Shown one piece after another: positions 1 to 16,625 of a stretch of DNA of 23,063 nucleotides. Under the pieces are notes generated by a model. That model saw only the letters and a list, made by a program, of their open reading frames with translations, was not told where the DNA came from and ran no database searches. The position numbers were made by a program, and so were the translations under genes. How positions within the stretch are numbered: position 1 is the stretch's first letter; every line of letters begins with the position of its first letter. The stretch lies in NCBI GenBank assembly GCA_030637655.1, contig DAOWGI010000028.1, forward strand, positions 1 to 23,063, written 5' to 3'. This stretch comes from a candidate division FCPU426 bacterium. Lineage in GTDB: Bacteria; Oederibacteriota; JAAXVQ01; JAUVAV01.

Positions 1-744
1 ATTAACCGGGGTTTTCAGGGCAATGGAAAAACCGTGGTCTGCATCCAGGATTTGCACTGTAATTATGAAGTGCAAAAGAACATTGCCGGCATTATTCAGC
101 ATTTGGTAAAAAAACATGGATTGAAACTCGTGGGTGAGGAAGGAGCATTTCACACGGTAGATACCTCGCCTATAAGCGCTTTTCCGATCAGGAAAGTCCG
201 GGAGGAAGTGAGTGATTATTTTGTCAAGCAGGGCAAGATCACAGGCGCGGAGCATTATGCTGCCATCAGTGGAGGCGCTATTCAACTGGAAGGCATTGAA
301 ACCCCGGAACTGTATGAAGCCAGCCAAAAAGCAGTGCGCAGTTTTTTAAATGCCGAGAGCCAGGGCTATTGCTATGATCTGCGTGATATGCTGGAAGAAT
401 TGAAAGCTGATATTTATAATTCCCAACTCTTGAAATTTGACCACAAGCGCGTAGCTTATCGCGAAGGTAATATCAGCATCCTGAAATACAGCGCGTATCT
501 GCACCGCACAGCCCGTAAGCTGCAATTGGATTTGGACGTGTATCCCAATTTGGCCCGCTTTTTAAGCCTGAAGCAAAACGTCTTTTCACCAAAAGTCGAC
601 CCGGACCAGCTTTTCCAGGAACTGGACAATTTGGATGCTGCTATCCGCCAACAGCTCTATACGGATAAAACGCAGCAGGAGTTGGATGAGCTTTATCATC
701 GTCTGGATATTGTTGAAAAGATGCTCAATATTTCTGTTTCCTAG
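1..744 (+). CDS. N-terminal part of giant mosaic membrane protein (5'-truncated by window edge; ends at an in-frame TAG)
   Basis: Frame is open from base 1 (INRGFQGNGKTVVCIQDLHCNYEVQKNIAGII...). It is the same frame as 787-9861, and the 14 codons after the TAG (EELQKFRTEREKYR) are open and helical-looking, so this is part of the downstream gene. Confidence 0.85.
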   Translation: MNRGFQGNGKTVVCIQDLHCNYEVQKNIAGIIQHLVKKHGLKLVGEEGAFHTVDTSPISAFPIRKVREEVSDYFVKQGKITGAEHYAAISGGAIQLEGIETPELYEASQKAVRSFLNAESQGYCYDLRDMLEELKADIYNSQLLKFDHKRVAYREGNISILKYSAYLHRTARKLQLDLDVYPNLARFLSLKQNVFSPKVDPDQLFQELDNLDAAIRQQLYTDKTQQELDELYHRLDIVEKMLNISVS

Positions 745-3700
745 GAAGAGCTGCAGAAATTCCGCACAGAGCGGGAAAAATACCGCATGAAAGAATTTGT
801 TGATTTTATTAATACCGTAGGGGCGATTCGTGAATCGCCCACCAATGAAGTGGATTATATTGAAAGTGAGATGTATGCCCTGGACGAGTATTTGAACCAG
901 GTGGAATATTTCTATCGCCTGGCCGATGAGCGCAGCATTCATTTTGTGGACAATATAATAAGGAAGATGGACGACCTGGACGAGAAGCTGGCAGTCATGA
1001 TAAACGGCGGATTCCACGCAGACATAGATTTGGCAGAACTAAAACGCCGGGATATCACCCATGTTTCGATCAAACCGCGCGTGACCAGGCAGGATGTGGT
1101 GAATCCGTATTTTGAATTGCTCCAGGACCGCCAGACCCCGCTGGAAAAACTGCTGGCCAAGAATCAGACGATTATGGCGATAATGTGCGGTTGGAGTAAA
1201 CAAGGATTTCGTCAGGAAACTGCCTTAAGCGTGAAAACCTTCGCCTATGCTATAGAAGCTGATGAATCGAGTAATCCAAATTTCGAAGAACAATTTTTGG
1301 AGTATAAGAAGGACCACAACATAACTGAATTATTTAAAATAAAAGAACCGGAAGCTGCCAAGCTGAAGATAAAATTGCCGAATGGTGTCAAAGCCTGCCA
1401 TGCGTTGATAAAAGGGAAATCTGAAATAAATATGGTTATGCTGATTACCAGAAAAGACCTTTTCTCAGAAGCCGGGCTTCAAAAAATGGGTTCGGTTGAT
1501 ACGAAACCAATTGGAAAGTACCATCTTTCACTTTTTTCGACTGAAAAACAAGCGGCTAAAGCAACACAAGCTATCAGTGTTCGAAACCAGCGGGTATCGG
1601 TTTTTACCAAAATTGGTGAAATGGCAAAAACTGTTTTTAAAATACCGGCTCGAATAGTAAGTTTTCTTTTCAAGCTGCCATCACGGGTAAGAACCATAAG
1701 CATACAGGCTTGGTTAAGCACAGCAATAGGAATAGCATTAGCAATATATACAATTACCGGCAATGTGCCTGGGCTAATGGCAGTGGTATCGCTGATAGTA
1801 AGCGTCTATATATATGAAAAGAATGTTGACAATTGGAATATATCATTTGCCGGTGTGCCGCGAGTGATAGAACAAGGGATAGTGGAGGTTGGACAAAAAA
1901 CCAAACTTGTTTCATTGAACGAAGGGCGGTCGGGGGATCAGGACTTACCGGAGAAAATAACGTCAGGCAGCACAATTCCGGCAAAGTATGAGAAAAAAAG
2001 AGCGCTGGTATCGACCTTTCTACAATTAAATAAATGGATAATGGTGGTTATATTAGCCGCTAGTCTGACATTTACTCAAGGCTGCATATTTACAATTAAA
2101 ATGAAATATTATGGAATGACCAGACCGGGTATCTTGGAAAAAAGGGAAACATTATTGCCAAGATTTAATTCGCGGATAATTAGCAAATATCCCAAAATTA
2201 GTAAGGGAGAAAAATTCACTCCTCAAGAAAAAGAAAAAGTTTTGCAAGAGCTAATTGAAGTTATATCGAAAAATAAATTTTTAGCAGTCAAAGCTAATAG
2301 AGGAATAAAAGGCCTGCCCAGATTTTATAATTCAAATTATTATCTGGAAAACCTGAATTCTATCATTGTTGAAGCTTGGGGCGGTTATGATGCACTTAAT
2401 GAAGCGCTGTTGCACGCAGAGGGTTCCGAATTTGAAAGAAGCGAAATAAATATCATACAAATCGCGCCGGAAGATCTGGTTAGAGCCGGCCAAGATCCAT
2501 TAAAATATGAGAAAAAAACAATAAACTTGCCAAAGGGAAGTTTTAGCGCACATTTGGAGGAATTCACATTTGAGGAAATAAATCGCATCTGGAAGTTCTG
2601 GTACCGGGAATGTACATACCGTTTAAAAAATCCACGCAAATTCTTCCGGTTCATGCACTTAATTGAAAAAAGCCGAAAATCTAAATCTGAATTTATAAAA
2701 AAAATGATCTCGGACGGTCACTCTGAGGCTGTCGCAAAAACTATAGGAACATTTTTAGAAAAAGTGTCGAAAATCATGCCACAACTGGAATTTTCAGATA
2801 ATCCAATGAAATTTATTATGGATGAGATTACGACCATGCGGGATAAGAAAAAAAATAAAGAAACAGCGCCAGGCACTAAAACCGGCGGATTTATGTCCCT
2901 TGGTCTGGACGGAAACGTAAAGAAGTTACTAAAGAAGTTTTCTGAAGACCCCGGGAAACAGCTAAAAGGGTTTAGAGAGCAAGTGTTGTTTAAGTCGCCG
3001 ATTTGGGAGCTGTGGTGGCAGGCATTTGGGTTATTACCCATACTCGGGGGTATATTAGGGATTATTATAGCGAATAAATTAGGAATTATAGCGCCAGATG
3101 ACTGGGCGATCATCTTGGCGGGAGACATGTTTGGATTTTTCTTAGGATTCTGGCTGGCAGTACCTATATTTGGTCAGCGGCATTTAAAGAAAGGTGAGTT
3201 TAATAAGGATATTTTTATTAATGCCGTTAAGTTATGGTACATCTATGGGATATCGGCAATAGTAGGAGGCCTTTATATACCACTATTCTTATTTGGCGGC
3301 GGGTACTTCGGGTACTTAATGTTAATAGGGTTTGTGATTTTGGGTGGAATCGGTACGGTGATAACTCATAGGGATATCAATTACAATAAACTCAGGAATT
3401 TAGAATTGGAGATTTTGAATAGTATTGTCAAAGAAGACAGAGGTTTCGTAAGTTCAATAAATGAAGTGATATCCAGCGCCAATAAGCAAAATAAATTGCC
3501 GTCAGAAGTAATGGAAAATATGTTAGAGGCAGCGGCCAATACAAAGCTTATTAAACTACAGACTGAATTGGCAAAGCAACTGCTTGAAAAGGAAAAATAT
3601 AAAGAAGCGGCTTTTATGGCAATGCCTTCCAGAGGAAAAGGCGAGCCAGGCCGTATGAGTGTTGAAAAAGCGGCAGCAGTTCAAAAGGCGAAGCATACAG

Positions 3701-6700
3701 GGAAAGTGCAACGTTTCTTATGGAACCTGCGTAAAACCGGCCAAATATTGTTTGATTCAGAATCGCGCCTTATCGGAAGAAAAACACTGCTCATGTTTTC
3801 TATAATTACCATAATAGTGCTGGCTGCCATCACCTATAGATCAGACAAGTCAGGTCAAATTGCAGAACAAAATCAGAAGCTAAACGCGCCAATTATCAAG
3901 AGATTAAGCTTGGAAGCTAAAGAACAGGGTTTTACAGTAGATGACCAGAGAGTGGCAATGTGGAAAGAGCAATTAAATAAGCATCTCACGGCATCAGACA
4001 AAAAGACGGAAGAAGATACAATTCTGTATTATTCTAGAGAAGAAGCAAAACGGCGGCACATGGCACTTGCTGCAATACTGGAACAGTTAAAAATAAAGGT
4101 GGAAGAACTTAATCTTCCAACAGACGAAGAGATAAATAATAAATGGAAGAGGCAACTGGAACAAGGAGATAAAGGGTGGGAAGCGCGCAAAATTATTGCT
4201 GCGCTGCTTAAGATTTGGAGTGAGCATAATGAATTAAATAAGCCGGTTATTAAGAGGTTAAAGTCAGAAGCTCGAAGCCTCCCGGGTTTTGTAATGGACT
4301 ACCGGGAACAGAAAAAGTGGGAGAAGCGCTTAAACCAGCATACTTGGAAATTGGGTAAGTGGTGGGAAGAAAAGAAAATTAAACAGGATATGCTAAGAGA
4401 AAATAATGAAAAGCTAAACGCGCCAATTATCGAGAGGTTAATGTTGGAAGCTGAAAAACTGGGTCTTGCAGCAAATCAACAGAGAGTGAAAGAGTGGGAA
4501 GGGCGATTAAACCAGTTTCCTAACGATGCGCACGACAAGCGTAAGGAAAAAGACACAATTGCATACGAACTGGAACAAGAAGCAAAATGGCGGTACATGT
4601 CACCTGCTAGGCTGGCGGCGTATTTAAAAGCAGAGGCGGAAAGTGGATATCTTACAGTAGACAAAAACCAAGTGGCAAAATGGACGAAGCAATTAGAAAA
4701 AGATAAATTGCCGGCAGCGCGTAGAATTATGGATGAGCTTGATAGGCTTTGGGCGCTGCATCTGAAACTAAATGAGCCGATTATCAAACGTTTAGAGTCG
4801 GATGCTGCACGCCTGGGCAAGCCGTTACGCAAAGATGTAATAAGAGATTGGGAGAGAGTGGCAGAGTGGAACAAGCGCTTAAACCAACATACTTGGAAAT
4901 GGCGTAAAGAGCAGGAAGAAGAAAAAATCAAACAGGATATGGCAAAAACAGAGCCAGTCACTGAAACCCGGGATGAAAGGTGGGAGCGCGTCGAAGGGCC
5001 GGCGTTTAGAAGTCTGAAAGGGTTCCCTGACGATCCGTATTACAAGCCTAAGGCCACTAAATCCGGCAGATTTATGTCCCTTGGTCTGGACGGAAACGTA
5101 AAGAAGTTACTAAAGAAGTTTTCTGAAGACCCCGGGGAACAGCTAAAAGGATTCAGAGAGCAAGTGTTGTTTAAGTCGCCGATTTGGGAGCTGTGGTGGC
5201 AGGCGGCCGGGATAGTATTACCCGCACTTGGGATGATAGCGGGGGCTATTATAGAGCCGGATTACCTTGGTATCAGAGGGTTTGGCGGCATGTTTGGAAT
5301 TATCGCAGGATTAGCGCTGGGAGTTATGTTTTATGCCCAGCGTCATGTAAAGCATAGCAAGGTTAGTGATAAAACAGGGTACTATATTAAAGCGCTAAGT
5401 ATATATTTTCCCTATGGAGTGTTGGGATTTGTATTATTTGTCTTTCTTAGCCCCACGTTCTTATTCAACATAGTATTCCTGTACATGATAATAGGTGGAC
5501 TGTTGATAGGTATATATCCCACATTTCGGAATCATAGGTCTATCAATCGCGATATACTCAGGGAGTTAGAATTGAAGATTTTGGCTGGTATTGCCGATGA
5601 AGAAGAAGATGAAGTCGCGCGTTCAATAGGTGGTGAAGTGATACTCAGCGCCTTTAAACAAAAGAAATTGCCGTCAGAAGTGATAGAAAACATGTTAAAG
5701 TCGACGGCCAATCCTGAAGTTGTTGATCCTAACGTTGTTGATCTGATGTCTCGAAAACAAAAATCTCTTGAAATACCGTCAGAATTGGTAAGACAAGTGT
5801 TTACAGAAGAAAAATATTTAGAAATGATAGAAAGGTTAAAGTTAACCAAAGTTTCTGATAAAGATAAAAATGATAAACTTCGTAAAATACAGACTAAATT
5901 GGCAAAGCAACTGCTTGAAAAGGGAAAATATAAAGAAGCGGCTTTTATGGCAATGCCTTCCAGAGGAAAAGGCGAGCCAGGCACCAAAGACAGCACTATT
6001 CTCCCGCAAGCAGTACGCTGGTTGTTGGCAGTGCCTTTGGGTATATCCGGTATCATGATGAGTGGTTTTAATCTCTGGCAGGCGCCCACTCCTGGTTCAG
6101 GCTTGCATACCACGCTTTCTGTTCTTAAAGTCCGCCTATTTAAATCCAAAGAGTCATCATTTTCCGGCAAACTTAAATGGCTAAAGGCTGCGCCCATGAT
6201 GTTAATGCCCGTGATGGCAATAACAATGCTCGGCACAAACTTATTCCTCGCTAGCTGGTCAATAATTGCAATACCTTTAAGTTTGATATTATATATAGTG
6301 CATACCAGGATAAACAAGAAATTTCTTTCGTGGCTCGAGAATTTTTTTGGCGGAAGTATGTTTTTTCTTCTTGTGACCCATATTTTTGGAGGACTTAGTA
6401 TTGCCGGAGAAGAAGCAAGTGCGCAATTTTCAGGGCTATACGGAATAGACTTTTTAATTGGTATCGGGGTAGTTGCAGTTGCTTTAATTGTGGTTAGTAT
6501 TATTTACCGGCAAATGCGTAGCAAAAAACAAATGAGAGAATCTTCCTTTGAGAAAACCGTGCCGGCCATTGGATTACAGGACAAATCGGATTGGTATAAG
6601 ACTTGGAGGATTATAGAAAAACATTTTGCAGTTCTAGCAAAAACAAAATTAAATAAGATTCGAAAATTAGATTTTGAAGATCCAGGCAATTATGCTGAAT

Positions 6701-9700
6701 TTCAACTTTATTACCTTCAACATCCTCACGAACTGCACAACTTTAATGTTTTTATAAATCATATTCAAAACTATTGGAGACTTGCTTTTGAAACTGCTGG
6801 GGATACGAACAATATTTTGTTTTACAAAAAGAAAGAAATGTTGCGGCGAATTAATATAGTTTGTCTAAGGCAATACTATGAGGACTTTTTGCAGGCGCGA
6901 TCAGATCAAAGGATTGGAATGCGTAGTCAAGGTCCTAAGCCTATGAGTCTGGAAAAATATATAGATTTATTCTATACGGAATTTATCAAGGAAGAACATG
7001 CGCAACAATTTATTTTTAACCACTTGCGGAAAATGGAAATAAGAAAGGGACAAAAGTTTACTCTTAATTATTTTGTAACCCACCATGATGAAATACAAAA
7101 TGAATTCATAGAAATTGCGAAGACGGAAGCGCCTGATTTAGTCAATAAAATTATAGAAAATATAGCCGAGATTTCCAAACGCATTGAAAAAGAAGCCGAT
7201 TTTGATGAAGGGGAGATATTAAAAAAGGACTGTTTGACATTTGTCAAGCAAGTGTTTGGATTATATTCAGAAGTAAAAAAAGCGCCAGCCGCTGAGTCTG
7301 CTAAATTTAAGCAACCATCCCCCCTCACTCCCGGCGCAATTGCCTCCCCCCTGGCAAAATTTTTCAACTGGACGCTGAGCCAAGCGGGAAGGTATGAAGG
7401 CTGGGCGGTAGCGGGTTTTTATTTGATACCTGTGATGCGTTTTATTTTAAAGGACGCGCCTACTGTTAGTGATTTCGGCTGGCTTATCATCCTGCCTGCA
7501 GCCGTGATTTTTGTTGCCTTCTTAGCTGCCCATTATGGTTGGGGCGTGCTGCAATACGATTCTGACGAAAAGAAGTATAAATCTTCCCATAAATTAGATG
7601 CAGACCAAACAGCTTACCAAAGATTCAAGCTTGCCCTCCAAGCCACCATGACCGCCACTGTAAGTTCGCTGCTAGGTCTGGCAGTGGTGGCAATAATAGC
7701 TGCCACGGGCTGGCTGGGGCCAGTGGCTTTAGTGCTCGCAGTGCTCGCTGTTCCTTTTGGCAGTTGGCTGCATGAACGAATGAATCTCCCGGCCGAAAGA
7801 GCAAATATTAATTTTTCTGATACTAAAAAGTATCAGTCATTAGAGAAGCTTTATGAAGATATGAAAATAAAGCCTCAGAATAGTAAAAAACCCTTAGCCG
7901 GGCACGTAATTGGAGAACGCCTGTCAGAATATGTGGATAATATATTCGGAAAAAAATATAATCTGATGAAGAATGTGCGTTTCTTGATCGGGCCTGCTTT
8001 TAGTGTCTCCTTTCAGGAAATGAATCCGGATGCAAAGGAAGATATAACCCCGGAATATCTCAAAGAAGAAACAGTATTAGTAATTTCTATGCCCAAGTGG
8101 CTCTGGAATATTGCCAAAAAAGACAAAAATATCAAATGGTGGTACCCGTTTGTTCATTATATACTGGGAATACGCTTGAAATTGAGTTTATCCTATCTTT
8201 CTCTGGAAAAGCGGTTTCTCTATAAATTGATTGAATCGGGCTGGGATCGCAAGGGCAAGGTGCTTAAATATATTTTGGAAAAAAGTCCTGATGTGGAGCG
8301 GATCATTGAGCCCAGGAAAGAACGACCTCAGGCTGATAAAGATCTCCCAATCGGTTTGGAGGCCTTTTTGCAGATATGCAACCAGGAACTGGGAGTGTCG
8401 ATTGCCGGTGAAAAACTTAAAGCAGAACTAAGCTCTGATTTAGCAGATGAGAATATGCAACAGGAGATTAAAGCGGCCAAGAAAAATCCAAGGAAACGGG
8501 CGGAACTATTTAGAAAGCATCCTTATTGGTTCCAGAAACGCCGGGTTGACACTATGCTGAATGCCGCGCAATCCGGGGAAAATACCCTGGCCAGGATGTT
8601 GATGCCGGATTTAGATGCTGACAAGTCTTTAAAGACCAAGGCGGAAAAGGCGCTGTCAGCAGCCATAATACGCGGCGATAAGGTAGACTTGCAGTATGAT
8701 TTTACTATAGCTGATCTTGAAATGATTCATTTACAGGCTTTTCCTGAAATGGCCGAGAGATTATTAGCAGAACAGGGAGATGCGCTGAAGAACTCTCCGG
8801 TATTAGAAATGGTATTGAAAGAAATGAAAAATGCTGAGCCAGGAAAGATAATCAGTATCAGTGTAGATGACCAAATCAGGGAATTGGTTAAAAAATACCA
8901 GGGCGAGAGAAAAGAAGAACTCACGCACTCTTTTGATCTGGGTAAAACCGCGGATGGTGATAGCGCTTACGCTATTGCTAACACGGCTGAGTTGGAGGCA
9001 TATAAAGTTAAAACAGAAGCTGGAACAATAACATTCTATCTGTCAACAGTCGGCCAGGTAAAGGTTGCTAAAGACGGTGACCTCGCTGAGGTTATCCGGA
9101 ATATAAATAGCCAAAAGCAGGCAATAAAACTCTTTGCTGGCCGGGATTCTTTGGCGCAAGGAATAGCAGCGGTAAATTTGAAGCGCAAGCTCAGTGAAAG
9201 CGCTAAAATTAAAATATGGATAAGCAATAAGCTGCGGTTTGGACTAAGCAGCCGGCATAGTTCTGTGGCTGCCGAAAATCCGGACGGCTATTTTAATTAT
9301 ATGGTTGAGCAACTGGAAGCTGATATACAAGCGCAAATGACGACGGCTGAGGTGAAAAAAACGTTTATCCCATTTATCACAGAACTCAAAAGACCGGGCA
9401 GTGATGTGCAAAAGGCAGTCAAAGCTGTGCTGAAGACCGCCAACCAAGACCAGGAAACCAAATTCCAGGCGCAGGAGCAATTAGCGCATGAGCTGCGGGC
9501 CCTGGTTACAAATTATAGTAAAATATTTCAGTCTGAAAATATTAAGGAAAATGAGGTTCTTCTGGCGGAGAATATTTTAAATATTGAAGCCTTTAGCCGC
9601 TTTGCCGAGTTAATGAACCCAATTATGGTAGTGGAACGAAATTACGCAACGCCTGATAAGCATGGGGAGTTGCAGAGTTTAATAGAAGAATTGGGGATCA

Positions 9701-9861
9701 GGCAAACGAATGTGAGCGTACCCTATGTTTTGCGGGGGAGAAATTGGGGAGCGCAGGGCGCTTATGATGATACACTGCGTGAAAACAATTATATACCAAA
9801 CGAGGAGAACACTAAGAAATTCCGGCGTAAGGCCATCAAGGTATTTGCCGGCGCAGCGTAA
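745..9861 (+). CDS. Giant multi-pass membrane mosaic protein, main part (first ATG 787, 3024 aa; continuous with 1-741 across the TAG)
   Basis: 9.1-kb stop-free frame with hydrophobic clusters (~1710-1815, 2035-2085, 3020-3370, 3785-3835, 5200-5530, 6015-6510, 7400-7790) alternating with charged soluble domains. It contains internal repeats and ends ...KAIKVFAGAA-TAA. No clear SD precedes ATG 787. Confidence 0.9.
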   Translation, partial: EELQKFRTEREKYRMKEFVDFINTVGAIRESPTNEVDYIESEMYALDEYLNQVEYFYRLADERSIHFVDNIIRKMDDLDEKLAVMINGGFHADIDLAELKRRDITHVSIKPRVTRQDVVNPYFELLQDRQTPLEKLLAKNQTIMAIMCGWSKQGFRQETALSVKTFAYAIEADESSNPNFEEQFLEYKKDHNITELFKIKEPEAAKLKIKLPNGVKACHALIKGKSEINMVMLITRKDLFSEAGLQKMGSVDTKPIGKYHLSLFSTEKQAAKATQAISVRNQRVSVFTKIGEMAKTVFKIPARIVSFLFKLPSRVRTISIQAWLSTAIGIALAIYTITGNVPGLMAVVSLIVSVYIYEKNVDNWNISFAGVPRVIEQGIVEVGQKTKLVSLNEGRSGDQDLPEKITSGSTIPAKYEKKRALVSTFLQLNKWIMVVILAASLTFTQGCIFTIKMKYYGMTRPGILEKRETLLPRFNSRIISKYPKISKGEKFTPQEKEKVLQELIEVISKNKFLAVKANRGIKGLPRFYNSNYYLENLNSIIVEAWGGYDALNEALLHAEGSEFERSEINIIQIAPEDLVRAGQDPLKYEKKTINLPKGSFSAHLEEFTFEEINRIWKFWYRECTYRLKNPRKFFRFMHLIEKSRKSKSEFIKKMISDGHSEAVAKTIGTFLEKVSKIMPQLEFSDNPMKFIMDEITTMRDKKKNKETAPGTKTGGFMSLGLDGNVKKLLKKFSEDPGKQLKGFREQVLFKSPIWELWWQAFGLLPILGGILGIIIANKLGIIAPDDWAIILAGDMFGFFLGFWLAVPIFGQRHLKKGEFNKDIFINAVKLWYIYGISAIVGGLYIPLFLFGGGYFGYLMLIGFVILGGIGTVITHRDINYNKLRNLELEILNSIVKEDRGFVSSINEVISSANKQNKLPSEVMENMLEAAANTKLIKLQTELAKQLLEKEKYKEAAFMAMPSRGKGEPGRMSVEKAAAVQKAKHTGKVQRFLWNLRKTGQILFDSESRLIGRKTLLMFSIITIIVLAAITYRSDKSGQIAEQNQKLNAPIIKRLSLEAKEQGFTVDDQRVAMWKEQLNKHLTASDKKTEEDTILYYSREEAKRRHMALAAILEQLKIKVEELNLPTDEEINNKWKRQLEQGDKGWEARKIIAALLKIWSEHNELNKPVIKRLKSEARSLPGFVMDYREQKKWEKRLNQHTWKLGKWWEEKKIKQDMLRENNEKLNAPIIERLMLEAEKLGLAANQQRVKEWEGRLNQFPNDAHDKRKEKDTIAYELEQEAKWRYMSPARLAAYLKAEAESGYLTVDKNQVAKWTKQLEKDKLPAARRIMDELDRLWALHLKLNEPIIKRLESDAARLGKPLRKDVIRDWERVAEWNKRLNQHTWKWRKEQEEEKIKQDMAKTEPVTETRDERWERVEGPAFRSLKGFPDDPYYKPKATKSGRFMSLGLDGNVKKLLKKFSEDPGEQLKGFREQVLFKSPIWELWWQAAGIVLPALGMIAGAIIEPDYLGIRGFGGMFGIIAGLALGVMFYAQRHVKHSKVSDKTGYYIKALSIYFPYGVLGFVLFVFLSPTFLFNIVFLYMIIGGLLIGIYPTFRNHRSINRDILRELELKILAGIADEEEDEVARSIGGEVILSAFKQKKLPSEVIENMLKSTANPEVVDPNVVDLMSRKQKSLEIPSELVRQVFTEEKYLEMIERLKLTKVSDKDKNDKLRKIQTKLAKQLLEKGKYKEAAFMAMPSRGKGEPGTKDSTILPQAVRWLLAVPLGISGIMMSGFNLWQAPTPGSGLHTTLSVLKVRLFKSKESSFSGKLKWLKAAPMMLMPVMAITMLGTNLFLASWSIIAIPLSLILYIVHTRINKKFLSWLENFFGGSMFFLLVTHIFGGLSIAGEEASAQFSGLYGIDFLIGIGVVAVALIVVSIIYRQMRSKKQMRESSFEKTVPAIGLQDKSDWYKTWRIIEKHFAVLAKTKLNKIRKLDFEDPGNYAEFQLYYLQHPHELHNFNVFINHIQNYWRLAFETAGDTNNILFYKKKEMLRRINIVCLRQYYEDFLQARSDQRIGMRSQGPKPMSLEKYIDLFYTEFIKEEHAQQFIFNHLRKMEIRKGQKFTLNYFVTHHDEIQNEFIEIAKTEAPDLVNKIIENIAEISKRIEKEADFDEGEILKKDCLTFVKQVFGLYSEVKKAPAAESAKFKQPSPLTPGAIASPLAKFFNWTLSQAGRYEGWAVAGFYLIPVMRFILKDAPTVSDFGWLIILPAAVIFVAFLAAHYGWGVLQYDSDEKKYKSSHKLDADQTAYQRFKLALQATMTATVSSLLGLAVVAIIAATGWLGPVALVLAVLAVPFGSWLHERMNLPAERANINFSDTKKYQSLEKLYEDMKIKPQNSKKPLAGHVIGERLSEYVDNIFGKKYNLMKNVRFLIGPAFSVSFQEMNPDAKEDITPEYLKEETVLVISMPKWLWNIAKKDKNIKWWYPFVHYILGIRLKLSLSYLSLEKRFLYKLIESGWDRKGKVLKYILEKSPDVERIIEPRKERPQADKDLPIGLEAFLQICNQELGVSIAGEKLKAELSSDLADENMQQEIKAAKKNPRKRAELFRKHPYWFQKRRVDTMLNAAQSGENTLARMLMPDLDADKSLKTKAEKALSAAIIRGDKVDLQYDFTIADLEMIHLQAFPEMAERLLAEQGDALKNSPVLEMVLKEMKNAEPGKIISISVDDQIRELVKKYQGERKEELTHSFDLGKTADGDSAYAIANTAELEAYKVKTEAGTITFYLSTVGQVKVAKDGDLAEVIRNINSQKQAIKLFAGRDSLAQGIAAVNLKRKLSESAKIKIWISNKLRFGLSSRHSSVAAENPDGYFNYMVEQLEADIQAQMTTAEVKKTFIPFITELKRPGSDVQKAVKAVLKTANQDQETKFQAQEQLAHELRALVTNYSKIFQSENIKENEVLLAENILNIEAFSRFAELMNPIMVVERNYATPDKHGELQSLIEELGIRQTNVSVPYVLRGRNWGAQGAYDDTLRENNYIPNEENTKKFRRKAIKVFAGAA
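2874..3023 (+). repeat. Intragenic direct repeat A, copy 1 (150 bp)
   Basis: Matches 5055-5204 with 5 mismatches and no gaps (offset 2181 bp, in frame). Encodes TKTGGFMSLGLDGNVKKLLKKFSEDPGKQLKGFREQVLFKSPIWELWWQA. Confidence 0.97.
3557..3651 (+). repeat. Intragenic direct repeat B, copy 1 (95 bp)
   Basis: Matches 5888-5982 with 2 mismatches (offset 2331 bp, in frame). Encodes QTELAKQLLEKEKYKEAAFMAMPSRGKGEPG. Confidence 0.97.
3865..4945 (+). repeat. Tandemly duplicated helical repeat domain (2 x ~178 aa, four LNxPIIxRL..W..xLN subunits)
   Basis: AAGCTAAACGCGCCAATTATC occurs at 3877 and 4411 (534 bp apart). AAGCGCTTAAACCARCATACTTGGAAA occurs at 4324 and 4873. KIKQDM occurs twice. Confidence 0.9.
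5055..5204 (+). repeat. Intragenic direct repeat A, copy 2
   Basis: 145/150 identical to 2874-3023. Confidence 0.97.
5888..5982 (+). repeat. Intragenic direct repeat B, copy 2
   Basis: 93/95 identical to 3557-3651. Confidence 0.97.
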
Positions 9862-9892
9862 GCCGGTAGCCGCCTGGGAGGCCGGAAATTTA

Positions 9893-10050
9893 CCTGACGG
9901 ACTTAGGTACAAAATCGAATTTTGAGCCTCTTCCCCCTTTGAAAAAGGGGGATTGAGGGGGATTTTGCATATGAAAGCGGGCGTTTTATTGATTAAATCC
10001 CCCCTGCCCCCTTTACAAAAGGGGGAGAATGACTAAAGTCCGACAGGCTC
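9893..10050. mobile_element. MITE/REP-like composite palindromic element
   Basis: Imperfect outer inverted repeats CCTGACGGACTTAG (9893-9906) and CTAAAGTCCGACAGG (10033-10047). They enclose two inverted units, TCCCCCTTTGAAAAAGGGGGA..AGGGGGATTT (9932-9965) and AAATCCCCCC..CCCCCTTTACAAAAGGGGG (9995-10025). No transposase present. Confidence 0.65.
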
Positions 10051-10086
10051 CTTGTTGCCCTCCTTGCTGCACAGGCTGATTATTAA

Positions 10087-10116
10087 TTGACAAAAAGAAT
10101 GAAAATAAGCTAAAAT
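10087..10116 (+). promoter_or_regulatory. Sigma70-type promoter of rpsU-dnaG-rpoD
   Basis: TTGACA (10087-10092), 18-bp spacer, TAAAAT (10111-10116), in AT-rich context. Confidence 0.7.
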
Positions 10117-10242
10117 ACATCTTTGTTTTCATTTTTCAGGTGTATTATTTTGAGATGCTTTTTAGGATGGGTTACGAGGTTGTGTGCGTAAGCGTCCAGG
10201 GAAAATGAGTATTCTGGCTAGAGAAAGGAGGGATTAAAAGTA

Positions 10243-10428
10243 ATGATTCAAATTCGAGTCAAAGATAGTGAGAATTTTGAGGCTGCCCTCCGTCGGTTCA
10301 AGAAAGAGGTTCAACAGTCAGGCGTTTTGTCCGAAATGCGTCGTCGGGAGCATTATGAAAAACCGAGCGTGAAGAAAAAACTGAAGATTTTAGCAGCCAA
10401 GAAAAAAGCCCGCAAACGCGGAGCCTAA
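10243..10428 (+). CDS. rpsU: 30S ribosomal protein S21
   Basis: Sequence [44 protein letters not shown] upstream, and position before dnaG. Confidence 0.98.
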
Positions 10429-10489
10429 TTGAGGGAATTATCGCTGATTTTTTTACCAATACAACAATGTAGTTTGGTTAAAACAATTC

Positions 10490-10530
10490 AACAGCCCGGA
10501 ATTTATTTTTCCGGGCTGTTTCCTGTTTTG
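10490..10530 (+). terminator. Intrinsic terminator between rpsU and dnaG
   Basis: 12-bp stem AACAGCCCGGAA / TTCCGGGCTGTT with a 7-nt loop and T-rich tail. Same position as the internal terminator of the E. coli rpsU-dnaG-rpoD operon. Confidence 0.75.
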
Positions 10531-10589
10531 TCCTTTTCAATATTAAGCAAATAATTAGACGGTAGTGATCCAATCCACTGAGGGTACTT

Positions 10590-12395
10590 GTGAGCTCGCA
10601 AGCAGATAAAGAACGTGTACGGGAAGCCAATGACATCGTTGAGGTCGTTTCAGGGTATGTGGCGCTCAAGAACAGCGGGAAAAATTTTAAAGGTCTGTGT
10701 CCCTTTCATAAAGAGAAAACTCCGAGTTTTATGGTCTCACCGGATCGGCAATCTTTTAAATGTTTTGGCTGCGGAGTAGGTGGAGATGTTTTTGAATTTT
10801 TGATGCGCGTGGATGGTCTCACATTTCCGGAAGCCATGCAGCAGCTGGCCATTCGGGGACGGGTGGAATTGACCCCATATCAGAAATCAGAGGACACCGA
10901 AGCTGACCGCTTGCAGCGAAAGCTCTACCCGGTTATGGCCTGGGCAGTGGAACGTTTTCAAAAAGGCCTGGCATCCTCAGAGGTCGGGTCCGAAGCACGG
11001 GTATATTTTGAAAAAAGAAAACTCACGCCGGCCTTGATCGAAAAATTCGGCTTAGGGTTCGCGCCGGCCGGTTGGGACAATATTTTGCGCGCCGGCGCGC
11101 GCGATCATTATTCGCGGGAAATTTTAGAACAAGCCGGTCTGCTGATCAGCAAAGAAGGCACTGACAAAGTCTACGATCGTTTTCGGACCAGAGTGATGTT
11201 TCCGATTTTTGATCTGCAAGGACGACCGGTTGCCTTTGGCGGCAGGCTCCTGGTTCCGGGTGAACCGAAATACTTAAACTCTCCGGAAACTCCGGTGTTT
11301 CATAAAGGGGAATTATTGTACGCGCTGAATTTTGCGCGGGACCGTGCGCGTGAGAACAAGCGTCTGATATTAACTGAAGGGTACATGGATGTGATTGCCT
11401 GTCATGGCGCGGATGTTACGGAAACCGTGGCTTCCTTGGGAACCTCTTTGACCACGCAACAGGCCAAATTGATCAAGCGTTATGTCAACCGGGTCATTTT
11501 ACTTTATGATATGGATGCTGCCGGTTTGCAAGCCTCGATCCGGGCTTTTGAAAATTTAAACCAAGTGGGAGTACAGGTTCGGGTAGCGGAGCTGCCGGAT
11601 GCCAAGGATCCGGATGAATTTATCCATACGCAGGGTGTTGAGGCTTTCCAATTTCAACTGGACAACACACTGAGTATTGTGGAGTTTGTGCTCAATGCTG
11701 CTTGCCAACGCCATGTTTTGGATTCGGTGGATGGAAAACTGGCTGTTTTGGGTGAGGTTGGGCCTCTGATTTTCCAATTTCCCAAGAATGGGGTAGAAAG
11801 GGGAGAGTATATCCATTTGGTGGCAGAACGTTTGCGCTTGCTGGACAGTCAGGTGATCGTTGAACTGGAGCGCCTGGGTAACGCAGCGCCTGTTTTTCGG
11901 GGCAAACAGGAAAAAAACGAGAAAACACAAATTCACGGTTTGGCCAGGACCTGCAAAGCCATTGAGGAAGTGCTTATTTCCATACTTCTGCAATTTCCTA
12001 TGGAAATAGAGGCTTTTCGTGAGGTGCTGCGGCCGGAAAGCTTTGCGGTTGCGGAATATCGTGAATTGATGGAAAAAATTCTGGCTGCCGAGCCGGTGGA
12101 TCCGGATGATGAGGAATTGTGGTTCCCGAGTGTTAGTGAGCATTGGCCTTTGGATATCTCAGAATTAGCCAAGCGTTTGAGCGCTATGGATCGCGGGACC
12201 GAGGAACCGGAGCGTGTGGTGAGGGATTGCCTGAACCGTCTCCAGGTGATGGAATTGCAGGGGCAACTCAATGAGATTCAAATTCGGATTAAGGAAGCAG
12301 AAAAGAATGGGGATATGGAAACTTGGAAGCAGAGGGCCCAGGAAAAAATCGAGCTGGCAGCCCGGATCAAGCAATTCGGAGTGATTTGGAAATAG
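10590..12395 (+). CDS. dnaG: DNA primase
   Basis: CHC2 zinc finger (CPFHKEKTPSF...CFGC), YDRFRTRVMFPI, PKYLNSPET, and TOPRIM motifs EGYMDVI and YDMDAAG. GTG start, TAG stop. Confidence 0.98.
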   Translation: MSSQADKERVREANDIVEVVSGYVALKNSGKNFKGLCPFHKEKTPSFMVSPDRQSFKCFGCGVGGDVFEFLMRVDGLTFPEAMQQLAIRGRVELTPYQKSEDTEADRLQRKLYPVMAWAVERFQKGLASSEVGSEARVYFEKRKLTPALIEKFGLGFAPAGWDNILRAGARDHYSREILEQAGLLISKEGTDKVYDRFRTRVMFPIFDLQGRPVAFGGRLLVPGEPKYLNSPETPVFHKGELLYALNFARDRARENKRLILTEGYMDVIACHGADVTETVASLGTSLTTQQAKLIKRYVNRVILLYDMDAAGLQASIRAFENLNQVGVQVRVAELPDAKDPDEFIHTQGVEAFQFQLDNTLSIVEFVLNAACQRHVLDSVDGKLAVLGEVGPLIFQFPKNGVERGEYIHLVAERLRLLDSQVIVELERLGNAAPVFRGKQEKNEKTQIHGLARTCKAIEEVLISILLQFPMEIEAFREVLRPESFAVAEYRELMEKILAAEPVDPDDEELWFPSVSEHWPLDISELAKRLSAMDRGTEEPERVVRDCLNRLQVMELQGQLNEIQIRIKEAEKNGDMETWKQRAQEKIELAARIKQFGVIWK

Positions 12396-14983: not shown

Positions 14984-15074
14984 GGGCGCACTCAGTGCGC
15001 CCCTACGGTTATTGATTTTTATTTTTAAGGGCGAACATACCCAAAAGACGGGCACAGGCAAGGTTCGCCCCTAC
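14984..15074 (-). repeat. Two GTAG-type REP-like palindromes
   Basis: GGGCGCAC-TCA-GTGCGCCC-CTAC (14984-15006) and GGGCGAAC...GTTCGCCC-CTAC (15029-15074). On the minus strand both read GTAG followed by a hairpin. Confidence 0.8.
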
Positions 15075-15115
15075 TGACTCCTGAATTCTGTTTTCTGAAT
15101 TCTGTATTCTGCCTT
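15074..15115. repeat. Degenerate 7-nt tandem repeat (CTGAATT-like, x6)
   Basis: ctgactc ctgaatt ctgtttt ctgaatt ctgtatt ctgcctt. Confidence 0.75.
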
Positions 15116-15220
15116 TCTCTGTGTATATCCGTGATTATTTATTTTGATTTTTCGGGTATTAAGGTTGCCCGGATTTGACCGAATCTATAATCGAATATAA
15201 TCCCTGAAGGCGGTGCACGG

Positions 15221-15919
15221 ATGTCCAGAACACACAAACCCGGTGAGCGCGTGGAGTCTTGGGGGGGGCGGCTGGATCAAAACCAATCGACAAATCAGGC
15301 TATAAACGCGGATTATAAGCATGTTTTGGAATTTTTACATCCCCGAGCAGGAGAATCCTTATTGGATGTTGGCTGTGGATATGGCCGGATGTTGGCAGCT
15401 GCCCTGGCCTTGGGCTTGAACAGCACTGGCATTGAGGATACTCCCGAAGCAGCCGCGGTAAGCCAAAAAAATGCACCGGACGCGAAAATTGTGGTGGGCA
15501 GTGATGTGGAACTGCCGTTTGAAGACAATCATTTTGATCTGGTCACAGCACTTAGTTTTTCGGATTATTTTTCGGATCCGGAAGAGGGGTTTGAAGAGAT
15601 TCGACGGGTCTTAAAATTTGGCGGACGGGCCTGCATTTTTTTGCCTAATTCAGATTTTATAGGCGCAAATAATAAATATTGCAAAACCAGATATACGCAG
15701 CCTGAGTCGGCACTTGTGTTTTCCTTGAAAGTATGGAAAAAAATGATTGAGGAATCCGGCCTGAAAATTGTCTCAGTACGTACCAGTACGCCTCAGCTGG
15801 GTCAGCAACAATCTGATTCCTGGAAAGGACGGTTAGCTCGATTTCTAACACTCCTGATGTGGCGAATTATGCCGTTGAAGTGGAGTTGTCAGTTTGTCTG
15901 TTATTGCTATAAAGATTGA
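15221..15919 (+). CDS. Class I SAM-dependent methyltransferase (Methyltransf_11-like)
   Basis: Motif I LLDVGCGYG, LPFEDNHFDLV and EIRRVLKFGG. Confidence 0.92.
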   Translation: MSRTHKPGERVESWGGRLDQNQSTNQAINADYKHVLEFLHPRAGESLLDVGCGYGRMLAAALALGLNSTGIEDTPEAAAVSQKNAPDAKIVVGSDVELPFEDNHFDLVTALSFSDYFSDPEEGFEEIRRVLKFGGRACIFLPNSDFIGANNKYCKTRYTQPESALVFSLKVWKKMIEESGLKIVSVRTSTPQLGQQQSDSWKGRLARFLTLLMWRIMPLKWSCQFVCYCYKD

Positions 15920-16016
15920 AAAACAGTCACCGCTTAAAAACCTAAATAACCACAGATGAACACTGATAAATTGAAAATAAAATTCAAAATTTAAAATGTA
16001 TGCTAAAATTTCTCTT

Positions 16017-16625
16017 ATGAAGAACCCAGGAACCAGGAACAGGCCAAAACCAACAAAAACCACTTCAGACCGAAAAAACTCCAGTGGATTTCTCTGGCTG
16101 GCCATGAATAAACCCGCAGAGGCAACGACTACGCGAAAAGAAGACATGGGTCGAAGAACGGTTTACGATTTATTACCGCCGAATTTACCCCGGGTTGAGT
16201 CGGTAGGTCGTCTGGATCGAGCTACCACCGGTTTACTGCTATTTACCAATGAGTTTAAGTTGGGACAGGCCCTCTTGAATCCGGAGAATGAGATTCCCCG
16301 GGTTTACCGGGTAGTAACAAATCGTCCTCTGCCTGAGCAGGCTTTGCCAACCCTGCGTCAGGGCGTGCTGCTGCAAGGCGGTACCATCTGTCAGCCGATA
16401 AAAATACAGAAAAACAATTTTCCCACACCTGGGCGCTCCTATGTATTTACACTCCAAGAGGGCAAATATCGTGAGGTCAGACGACTGGTCATGCATTTTG
16501 GCAGGACCGTGCGGGGGCTGCATCGTCTTACTTTCGGTCCTATTGAGCTGGGAAATTTGAAACCAGGGCAAGTGAGGCGGTTACCGGACTGGGAAATTAA
16601 TAAAATCCGAAAAATGATAAAATGA
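16017..16625 (+). CDS. rRNA pseudouridine synthase, RsuA/RluB/RluE family, lacking S4 domain
   Basis: NKP motif, catalytic VGRLDRATTGLLL, EGKYREVRR and GLHRLTFGPIELGNLKPG. Start is uncertain (15996 or 16017). Confidence 0.92.
   Translation: MKNPGTRNRPKPTKTTSDRKNSSGFLWLAMNKPAEATTTRKEDMGRRTVYDLLPPNLPRVESVGRLDRATTGLLLFTNEFKLGQALLNPENEIPRVYRVVTNRPLPEQALPTLRQGVLLQGGTICQPIKIQKNNFPTPGRSYVFTLQEGKYREVRRLVMHFGRTVRGLHRLTFGPIELGNLKPGQVRRLPDWEINKIRKMIK

Follow-up and report, generated by a model that had tools for sequence, protein, structure and literature searches.

How could two copies of one protein module come to have nearly identical ends and strongly diverged middles? The question is raised by the window analyzed here, a 23,063-nucleotide stretch from a candidate division FCPU426 bacterium, in which a giant gene (3,000+ residues) carries two short segments, A and B, each present twice and enclosing dissimilar transmembrane (TM) cores. 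A and B correspond to the two ends of a single ∼260-residue stretch, and A, core, and B very probably make up one four-helix membrane module that occurs twice in the gene (Table 1), its ends sharing a recent common ancestor and its cores an old one. That combination leaves recombination as the sole source.

Table 1. Positions of the module copies, their edges, and the surrounding gene in the window
Feature	Position	Strand	Remarks
N-terminal domain	1..744	+	Conserved across the giant-protein family; in frame with the giant ORF
Giant ORF	745..9861	+	3,038 codons stop to stop; first ATG at 787
r, left copy (13-bp direct repeat)	2868..2880	+	Codes PGTK; A1 begins at its base 7
A1, N-terminal end of module copy 1	2874..3023	+	Two short helices; invariant Glu at 3007
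TM core, copy 1	3024..3363	+	58% nt and 38% aa identity to copy 2; F/Y-x3-H motif at 3169
Distal core, copy 1	3364..3556	+	72% nt identity to copy 2; H-x3-N motif at 3367
B1, C-terminal end of module copy 1	3557..3651	+	58-bp exact run with B2
Cargo Y	3652..5054	+	Between module copies; one hydrophobic segment; old internal repeat (3864-4392 versus 4398-4941, 67% nt identity)
A2, N-terminal end of module copy 2	5055..5204	+
Core, copy 2	5205..5887	+	Glu, His, His, and Asn positions as in copy 1; 53-residue insertion immediately ahead of B2
B2, C-terminal end of module copy 2	5888..5982	+
r, right copy	5976..5988	+	12/13 bases as in left copy; base 7 is the last base of B2

We compared the two copies base by base and found the contrast reported in the original prediction, with 145/150 identical positions in A (exact runs of 68 and 50 bp) and 93/95 in B, against 58 to 72% identity in the cores, whose divergence is itself uneven. 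The A-A and B-B spacings (2,181 and 2,331 bp) are multiples of 3, so crossovers in either segment keep the frame. The contrast holds at synonymous sites: the codon-aligned dS between copies is 0.10 in A and 0.00 in B, compared with 0.81 in the TM core and 0.28 in the distal core, and codons are identical at 67/70 same-residue sites in A plus B and at 24/35 in the TM core (Fisher P = 0.0003). A two-breakpoint fit put the edges at 3022 and 3559 with a log-likelihood gain of 62, while codon shuffles (n = 20) gave at most 10.4. A and B are equally diverged (5/150 and 2/95 differences, P = 0.71), and indels lie at the inner edges, namely, gaps of 1 and 7 codons immediately inside A and the 53-codon insertion directly before B. 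At the outer side, identity continues up to the last base of B; the drop noticed earlier after KGEPG was observed, but it marks the end of the duplicated module and not a fall within homologous sequence. The outcome that was to count against the original prediction, two copies only and uniform dS, was seen in its first half, but dS is not uniform.

Evaluation of 99 genomes of the phylum showed that the module is present in two of them and that none besides the genome under study has both copies. In the other one, which belongs to another genus and served as an outgroup, the module occurs once with the same ends, so the segments formerly described as anchors are indeed near-identical but are the termini of one natural module and not free elements. 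Jukes-Cantor (JC) distances to the outgroup are flat (A, 0.77; TM, 0.76 to 0.86; distal, 0.67 to 0.78; B, 0.43), whereas those between copies are 0.04, 0.61, 0.35, and 0.03, respectively. With this one outgroup, the ratio of copy-to-copy to outgroup distance amounts to 0.05 (0.02 to 0.11) for A, 0.76 (0.59 to 0.96) for TM, 0.48 (0.32 to 0.66) for distal, and 0.07 (0 to 0.20) for B. Likewise, identity to the outgroup is similar in the ends (40/82) and the core (60/155; P = 0.17), unlike the identity between copies (76/82 and 69/155; P = 2e-14). Since divergence from the outgroup is flat along the module, constraint fails to explain the difference between ends and core, and codon simulations at anchor-level dS reached the observed synonymous difference in only 0 to 3 of 300 runs. 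As read from the sequences, recent recombination has equalized the module ends or replaced a core. In this either-or form the homogenization proposed originally is retained, the outgroup and the simulations excluding even divergence and protein constraint alone.

We then looked at the outer edges of the duplication and found both at base 7 of a 13-bp direct repeat, r, whose two copies are 3,108 bp apart and in frame. This shared position suggests a microhomology-mediated tandem duplication that may later have been split by the 1.4-kb cargo. B1 also stops at base 7 of r. Random in-phase 13-mer pairs matched as well as r in 13 of 4,999,964 draws, and we estimate a chance match at roughly 1 in 2,500 after choice of register and flank. 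Conversion cannot reach the outer halves of r, which are not part of the duplicated DNA; they match at 11/12 bases, the probability of which is 0.95 at anchor-level, 0.11 at distal-core-level, and 0.014 at TM-core-level divergence. If PGTK is under selection, r would date the duplication only weakly (odds falling to about 2:1, by our estimate). An end repeat was found at 1/8 intragenic duplicates tested. With exactly three occurrences in the genome (both strands) and none at the ends of cargo Y or of the 7 other duplicates, r was rejected as a family-wide site.

We prefer, tentatively and by a narrow margin, a young duplication that united divergent cores. An ancestral module flanked by r would have given two copies in tandem by recombination using r. 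Either two versions already divergent in the population would have been joined at once, by homology on one side and microhomology on the other, or one core would soon have been overwritten by a divergent version via crossovers in A and B. Cargo Y, for which we found no homologue in the rest of the genome, would then have entered and split the central r. A and B would have acted as passive landing pads for RecA, which is encoded in the genome, with no dedicated recombinase sites, and the benefit is likely the presence of two different membrane cores within one surface protein. The equal divergence of A and B is predicted by one event, and the anchor-level match of the outer halves of r counts for a young duplication, as does a second sandwich in the genome (C73 versus C115), where equally diverged flanks (95.5% identity over 112 bp and 94.3% over 959 bp) enclose a 41% identical TM module.

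A donor or a single-module allele for this route was found in none of the protein, genome, metagenome, and viral searches. Protein clusters in three length classes (best ∼8,000 candidates each) contained no match to module alleles, and metagenome, genome, and viral contigs contained none to the module; 1.84 billion protein representatives returned only the window's own protein and missed even the known outgroup, so that these libraries are incomplete. In Bacillus, exchange is very inefficient with donors that are over about 17% divergent (PMC6382021, available part), which implies that A and B were already near-identical in any donor.

Almost as probable, and like the preferred route rated below an even chance, is that the tandem duplication is old and that repeated intragenic gene conversion has kept the ends alike. 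The core might, with the same reservation, have escaped conversion through selection for two cores and through blocking indels and differences (a peak of divergence). The three strata of divergence between copies (0.03 to 0.04, 0.35, and 0.61) resemble a shrinking convertible zone, whose inner edges adjoin the indels mentioned above. The giant-protein family is rich in old intragenic duplicates and conversion-like patches, which favors this route, and in 88 giant-ORF stretches from 6 genomes, 17/18 near-identical mid-gene patches were within one genome. In the genome under study, 3/7 nonrepetitive patches end within about 15 bases of the start of a hydrophobic segment; the idea that such patches always bracket membrane cores was rejected, as other patches cover hydrophobic segments. 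On the other hand, an old duplication needs separate conversions at both ends, up to the outer homology edge, decay would be expected in the halves of r that conversion cannot reach, if they are neutral (the 0.014 to 0.11 given above), and direct repeats 2.2 to 2.3 kb apart must long have avoided in-frame deletion.

Old duplication with conversion is a known model, described for primate red and green opsins (PMC3924837, available part), which like the present gene have one divergent region, low-divergence flanks, and indels ending conversion; the flanks here are merely 150 and 95 bp and stop at the duplication edges, and a role of selection on the core is putative. The segments of homA/homB, together with babA/babB, of Helicobacter pylori provide another parallel, with conserved or homogenized ends around a polymorphic middle, middle alleles common to the paralogues, and intragenomic recombination (PMC2795765, available part). 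These are separate outer-membrane genes known from many sequenced strains, whereas the present modules belong to a single giant gene with no known allele series; the accessible text of that paper reports concerted evolution for segment 3 only, while the match here extends to both ends.

That the membrane cores are still being varied seems unlikely. A core-plus-cargo circle would be excised via A and reenter via B, or core alleles would be exchanged between strains; crossovers confined to the ends would keep these homogenized, and populations would, just as doubtfully, hold swapped, deleted, and third-core forms. In metagenome run X3, one contig runs from core 1 across B straight into the downstream flank, leaving out 2,331 bp, and is indistinguishable from a k-mer graph clipping artifact; in another, A has 3 other letters and is joined to core 2. 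These contigs and the C73/C115 sandwich fit ongoing core variation without demonstrating it. The B1-to-B2 joint was seen once, in 1/4 runs, and the skipped DNA in X3 is as deep as the flanks (6.1 to 7.2 and 5.4 to 6.8), so the joint requires no deletion.

The original prediction took A and B for constant sites at which cassettes are exchanged. Such a dedicated, programmed system with a pool of cores and cargos is highly improbable, even if the frame-preserving crossovers, the X3 joints, and the second sandwich would suit it. The assembly (120 contigs, 91.6% complete, so that hidden copies are possible) contains just two copies each of A and B, a six-frame search of the genome found no orphan or silent cores or cargos, no recombinase was seen by eye among the window ORFs, the outgroup has one natural module, and both the scarcity of r and the depth of the skipped DNA speak against exchange sites. 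The cassettes of Borrelia vls likewise end in short direct repeats (17 bp, against 13 bp in the present gene) and form a variable region between common sequence, but vls has 15 silent cassettes that are 90 to 96% identical to the expression site (PMC2632889, available part), whereas we found two expressed-frame copies with cores 58 to 72% identical and no silent pool. Silent-cassette antigenic variation (vls, msp2, and pilE type) relies on a pool of silent donor cassettes with common flanks, and the parallel once drawn with antigenic-variation cassettes is not supported.

An assembly artifact, in which paralogues or strains were fused via common ends or the ends collapsed to a consensus, is less probable still. 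This is a metagenome assembly, no contig covers the whole stretch, the order of the pieces is not confirmable from contigs, and the first 1.1 kb of the window conflicts with many contigs. Against an artifact, run X1 tiles all unique pieces with 0 to 2 other letters, each piece reaching 30 bp into an exact run of A or B, and gives similar depths for X, Y, and Z (12.5, 12.3, and 14.5). The copies retain 7 distinguishing bases, and the 68-bp longest exact run is well under the 141-bp contig overlaps of the assembly (assembler word length inferred). X1 is possibly the source of the assembly and hence not independent; X2 and X3, from the same study, cover parts. Core 1 had a depth of 20.1 in X1 (other pieces, 12.3 to 15.8) and a low depth in X3, contig depth not being equal to copy number.

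A young duplication without exchange, through fast core evolution (positive selection or local hypermutation) or more constrained ends, is the least credible explanation. In its favor, dN is near dS in the cores, hydrophobic segments retain fewer identical synonymous codons (400/575 versus 2,840/3,601 in 18 hand-picked paralogous segment pairs), and B is the part best conserved against the outgroup (56 to 59% aa identity), but the outgroup comparison and the codon simulations largely refute it, and the changes do not favor adenine (A, 54/148; C, 25/65; G, 51/125; T, 56/154) and include several indels.

Other diversification systems were considered and rejected. Polymorphic toxins (Rhs, CdiA, and MafB) vary in a C-terminal toxin domain, downstream of which lie an immunity gene and orphan modules. 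In the giant gene the variable part is internal, the C terminus is 70% in common with paralogue C93, a repeat element and a primase gene follow, and domain searches matched no toxin or other family domain; the suggested toxin cassette is not supported. Diversity-generating retroelements make changes only at template adenines, without indels, and carry their own reverse transcriptase (RT); the missing adenine bias and the indels contradict this, and of 3 RT matches the two pieces scanned were both best matched as group II intron RTs. Shufflons and integrons have a conserved site at each cassette junction and a linked recombinase, which the distribution of r and the window ORFs do not support.

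The case is a clean example of a known process, and we found no dedicated system for swapping cassettes. For an uncultured lineage, it shows base by base how giant modular membrane proteins are put together, with microhomology at duplication edges, a linker cargo, and module-end recombination on view. If divergent cores are actively exchanged, these surface proteins would have a route to diversification; at present, the process is ordinary and the gene unusual. The giant transmembrane-punctuated proteins of Omnitrophota (bioRxiv 10.1101/2023.11.21.568195 and 10.64898/2026.06.07.730766) are likewise very long, with repeated modules that are mostly old, and the parts of these two preprints that were consulted describe no near-identical module ends; neither main text contains the terms "recombination" or "shuffl." Literature searches on Omnitrophota giant-gene conversion, FCPU426 giant proteins, and Firestonebacteria (the latter two by title, among the matches listed) yielded no description.

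We also analyzed the module for a possible protein family. In CPBP/Rce1-type intramembrane proteases, four helices carry the motifs EExxxR, FxxxH, and HxxxN. All 3/3 module copies share one Glu, F/Y-x3-H, and H-x3-N without variation, but EExxxR is incomplete. CPBP was absent among the 9 families listed by a Pfam search (E up to 10, most weak matches being filtered). Fold searches with a structure model built from 3 sequences (pLDDT 65) gave no match at E ≤ 0.001 and, as the best match by Z score, SNX1 (9.4, root mean square deviation 2.0, 92 aligned residues), which is below the meaningful level for helical bundles; these outcomes rule out no family.

The giant ORF contains 14 hydrophobic segments, both module copies included, and the gene is one of about 29 paralogues. 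An in-frame TAG at 742 to 744 closes the conserved N-terminal domain; the matching codon is CAG in 4/15 paralogues read and a stop in 0/15. Among the matches listed, loose contig ends and variants were located at the repeat element at 9.9 kb and in the N-terminal region. The closest named relatives are labeled Candidatus Firestonebacteria and Goldiibacteriota, and one relative of the N-terminal domain lies on a contig labeled Omnitrophota.

A single ORF belonging to a giant membrane protein family holds both copies of the module, in which near-identical ends (A and B) enclose diverged cores. Realignment upheld the counts of the original prediction (145/150 identical bases in A and 93/95 in B) and the frame-preserving spacings of the copies (2181 for A-A and 2331 for B-B). 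The abrupt loss of identity was also recovered: a two-breakpoint fit placed its edges at positions 3022 and 3559, with a gain far beyond that in 20 shuffles. The codon-aligned dS proved uneven along the module; the membrane core has 0.81 and the distal core 0.28, against 0.10 for A and 0.00 for B. Five of the seven differences between the copies in A and B change a residue.

Ends that are merely constrained should be conserved against an outgroup as well. G003, a genome from another genus, has one module copy (43% identical, with unrelated flanks). Nucleotide identity of copy 1 to this outgroup was 0.52 in A, 0.52 in the membrane core, 0.56 in the distal core, and 0.68 in B, versus 0.96, 0.58, 0.72, and 0.97 between copies 1 and 2; constraint on the ends alone is ruled out, as these are not conserved in G003. 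The outgroup-scaled distances between the copies were 0.05, 0.76, 0.48, and 0.07, respectively, with no overlap between the intervals of ends and core, and in simulations of young duplicates that differed only by faster protein evolution, 0 to 3 of 300 runs reached the observed synonymous difference. Together, the scaling and simulations indicate, from one outgroup, that common ancestry is recent for the ends and old for the cores. Among the copy differences, no adenine bias was found.

The module was found in 2 of 99 genomes of the phylum, the window's (G000) and G003. Since the G003 copy spans from the start of A to the end of B, A-core-B forms a single natural module (about 260 residues), and its structure is predicted with moderate confidence to be all-helical. 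One Glu, F/Y-x3-H, and H-x3-N are invariant in the three copies, a layout reminiscent of CPBP proteases; the module failed the Pfam test for CPBP, and Pfam, NCBIfam, and PADLOC gave no family above cutoff in the parts of the gene scanned.

The duplicated DNA is bordered by a direct repeat, r; the 7th base of its left copy is the first of the A1-A2 homology, and the 7th base of its right copy is the last of the B1-B2 homology. Only 13 of 4,999,964 random in-phase pairs matched as well. The outer halves of r, which lie outside the duplicated DNA, match at 11/12 bases, which has a probability of 0.95 for an event of the same age as the anchors and of 0.014 to 0.11 for one of the same age as the cores; by our estimate, selection on the PGTK peptide encoded by r would cut these odds to about 2:1. 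With X and Z as outer flanks and M as the module, the simplest history would lead from X-r-M-r-Z to X-r-M-r-M-r-Z, cargo Y then entering the middle r. A role for r as a family-wide site was rejected (3 exact occurrences in G000; such ends in 1/8 duplicates tested).

The pattern is real, and ordinary recombination explains it. The genome encodes RecA and MutS, and the exact runs in A and B (50 to 68 bp) exceed the RecA minimum of 25 to 35 bp stated in an excerpt of PMC6382021. We tentatively favor a recent duplication uniting divergent cores, either two divergent module versions that would have been joined via r or a young duplicate in which crossovers in A and B would have overwritten one core. 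This history accounts for r, for A and B having diverged to the same extent (p = 0.71), and for identity up to the outer edge; no donor allele appeared in any search made. An old duplication with ends kept alike by conversion is a possibility to be taken seriously: it accounts for the inner-edge indels and for the presence of three divergence strata, and it agrees with the habits of the giant-protein family. Conversion that keeps parts of old duplicates alike is treated in sections of a review (PMC3924837), and conversion-homogenized ends are described for homA/homB in part of PMC2795765. Ongoing core exchange in the population seems improbable. Recombination at the anchors is supported by the recent ends and old cores in the outgroup test. 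Their proposed role as exchange sites for cassettes is not supported: genome-wide, the assembly has two copies each of A and B and no third with other neighbors, and no orphan cores or cargos were found in six frames. In this it differs from vls, with its 15 silent cassettes (portion of PMC2632889). In the way it works, the mosaic resembles the segmental recombination seen between adhesin paralogues of H. pylori, and it is a further case of a known recombination process. A polymorphic toxin, a DGR, and a site-specific cassette system were rejected on the features tested.

Four cold-seep metagenome runs from one study (X1 to X4) were compared with the window. Contigs from X1 cover every unique piece with 0 to 2 differing letters and break at the exact runs, where a 31-mer graph must break; this coverage supports each piece and its anchor link, not the order of pieces, and the window may itself derive from X1. 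In X3 alone, at sixfold depth, one contig links core 1 via B to the downstream flank, with 58 letters that suit either side; a second one leads from A to core 2 with three differing letters, over a stretch in which A has exactly three differences. DNA skipped by the joint is as deep as its flanks. Both contigs fit a core-swapped order and clipped graph branches about equally well, and they were given no weight as evidence.

Features of the window and of related giant genes
Feature	Location	Observation
A1; A2	2874-3023; 5055-5204	150 bp
B1; B2	3557-3651; 5888-5982	95 bp
Membrane core; distal core, copy 1	3024-3363; 3364-3556	
Core, copy 2	5205-5887	
Cargo Y	3652-5054	
Repeat r	2868-2880; 5976-5988	13 bp, 12/13 bases match, in frame
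ORF	745-9861	
In-frame TAG	742-744	Within conserved N-terminal domain; 742 is C in X1 and X2 contigs (may be paralogues), T in X3 and X4 contigs (depth about 4.6); could be a nonsense allele of recent origin or a mixed assembly
Probable gene start	G000:C40:1-247	Overlaps window 1-40 exactly (40 bp); would add 69 codons (about 3,355 total), join uncertain because region is common to paralogues
N-terminal patchwork	1-1180	58 to 98% identity per 60-bp window to each close paralogue; closest paralogue switches along region
Return joint	2691-2817	X1 and X2 contigs (depth 3-4) return from 2817 to 2691 with 21 intervening letters; may reflect a minor tandem duplication or a different organism
Another membrane module	7300-7790	F-x3-H (7519), H-x3-N (7771); common to paralogues C40 and C93
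Palindromic intergenic repeat	9893-10056	At least 10 further copies in G000, which has many such small families
Second sandwich, two giant genes	G000:C73 (ORF nt 34961-36621); C115:15853-27270 (ORF nt 8591-11418)	C115 has about 390 extra residues between patches
Outgroup giant	L017 (G003:C277)	Helicase-like motifs (by eye) 3' of module; tail 74% identical to G000 paralogue C10 versus 64-70% for adjoining housekeeping genes, hence a hint of module traffic between genera
Intragenic repeat, relative's giant gene	L107 (G002), ORF nt 8398-9707; 15025-16334	1,310 bp, 99.7%
Tandem, relative's giant gene	L060 (G005), ORF nt 3501-4244	300-bp period, over 99%

The analysis covered 29 ORFs of the family in G000, 26 recognized by a shared N-terminal domain and 3 included by hand; this domain has 6 to 35 matches per genome in all 11 genomes of the giant-protein family. 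Named relatives are labeled Candidatus Firestonebacteria or Goldiibacteriota, and one Omnitrophota. The portions consulted of the main texts of two Omnitrophota giant-protein preprints do not mention recombination, and the literature searched held no description of the mosaic module. Stretches of 75 bases with 71 or more matches were present in 23 of 427 paralogue alignments in G000 and, outside the N-terminal domain, in 8 of 69, one being a contig overlap. Among 88 giant-ORF stretches from six genomes (all 29 from G000, and 20, 13, 11, 9, and 6 that are part of the others' giants, some cut at 20 kb), we found 18 mid-gene patches (at least 60 bp, at least 90%), 17 of them within one genome, in 5/6 genomes. 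A deep core between two near-identical patches was seen twice, in the window and in C73 versus C115 (patches of 112 bp at 95.5% and 959 bp at 94.3%; core, 41% at the amino acid level), and two more pairs have shallow dips. In the middle regions of the G000 giants, many paralogous segments have 75 to 88% identical synonymous codons and only 43 to 55% amino acid identity; protein change is therefore about as fast as silent change.
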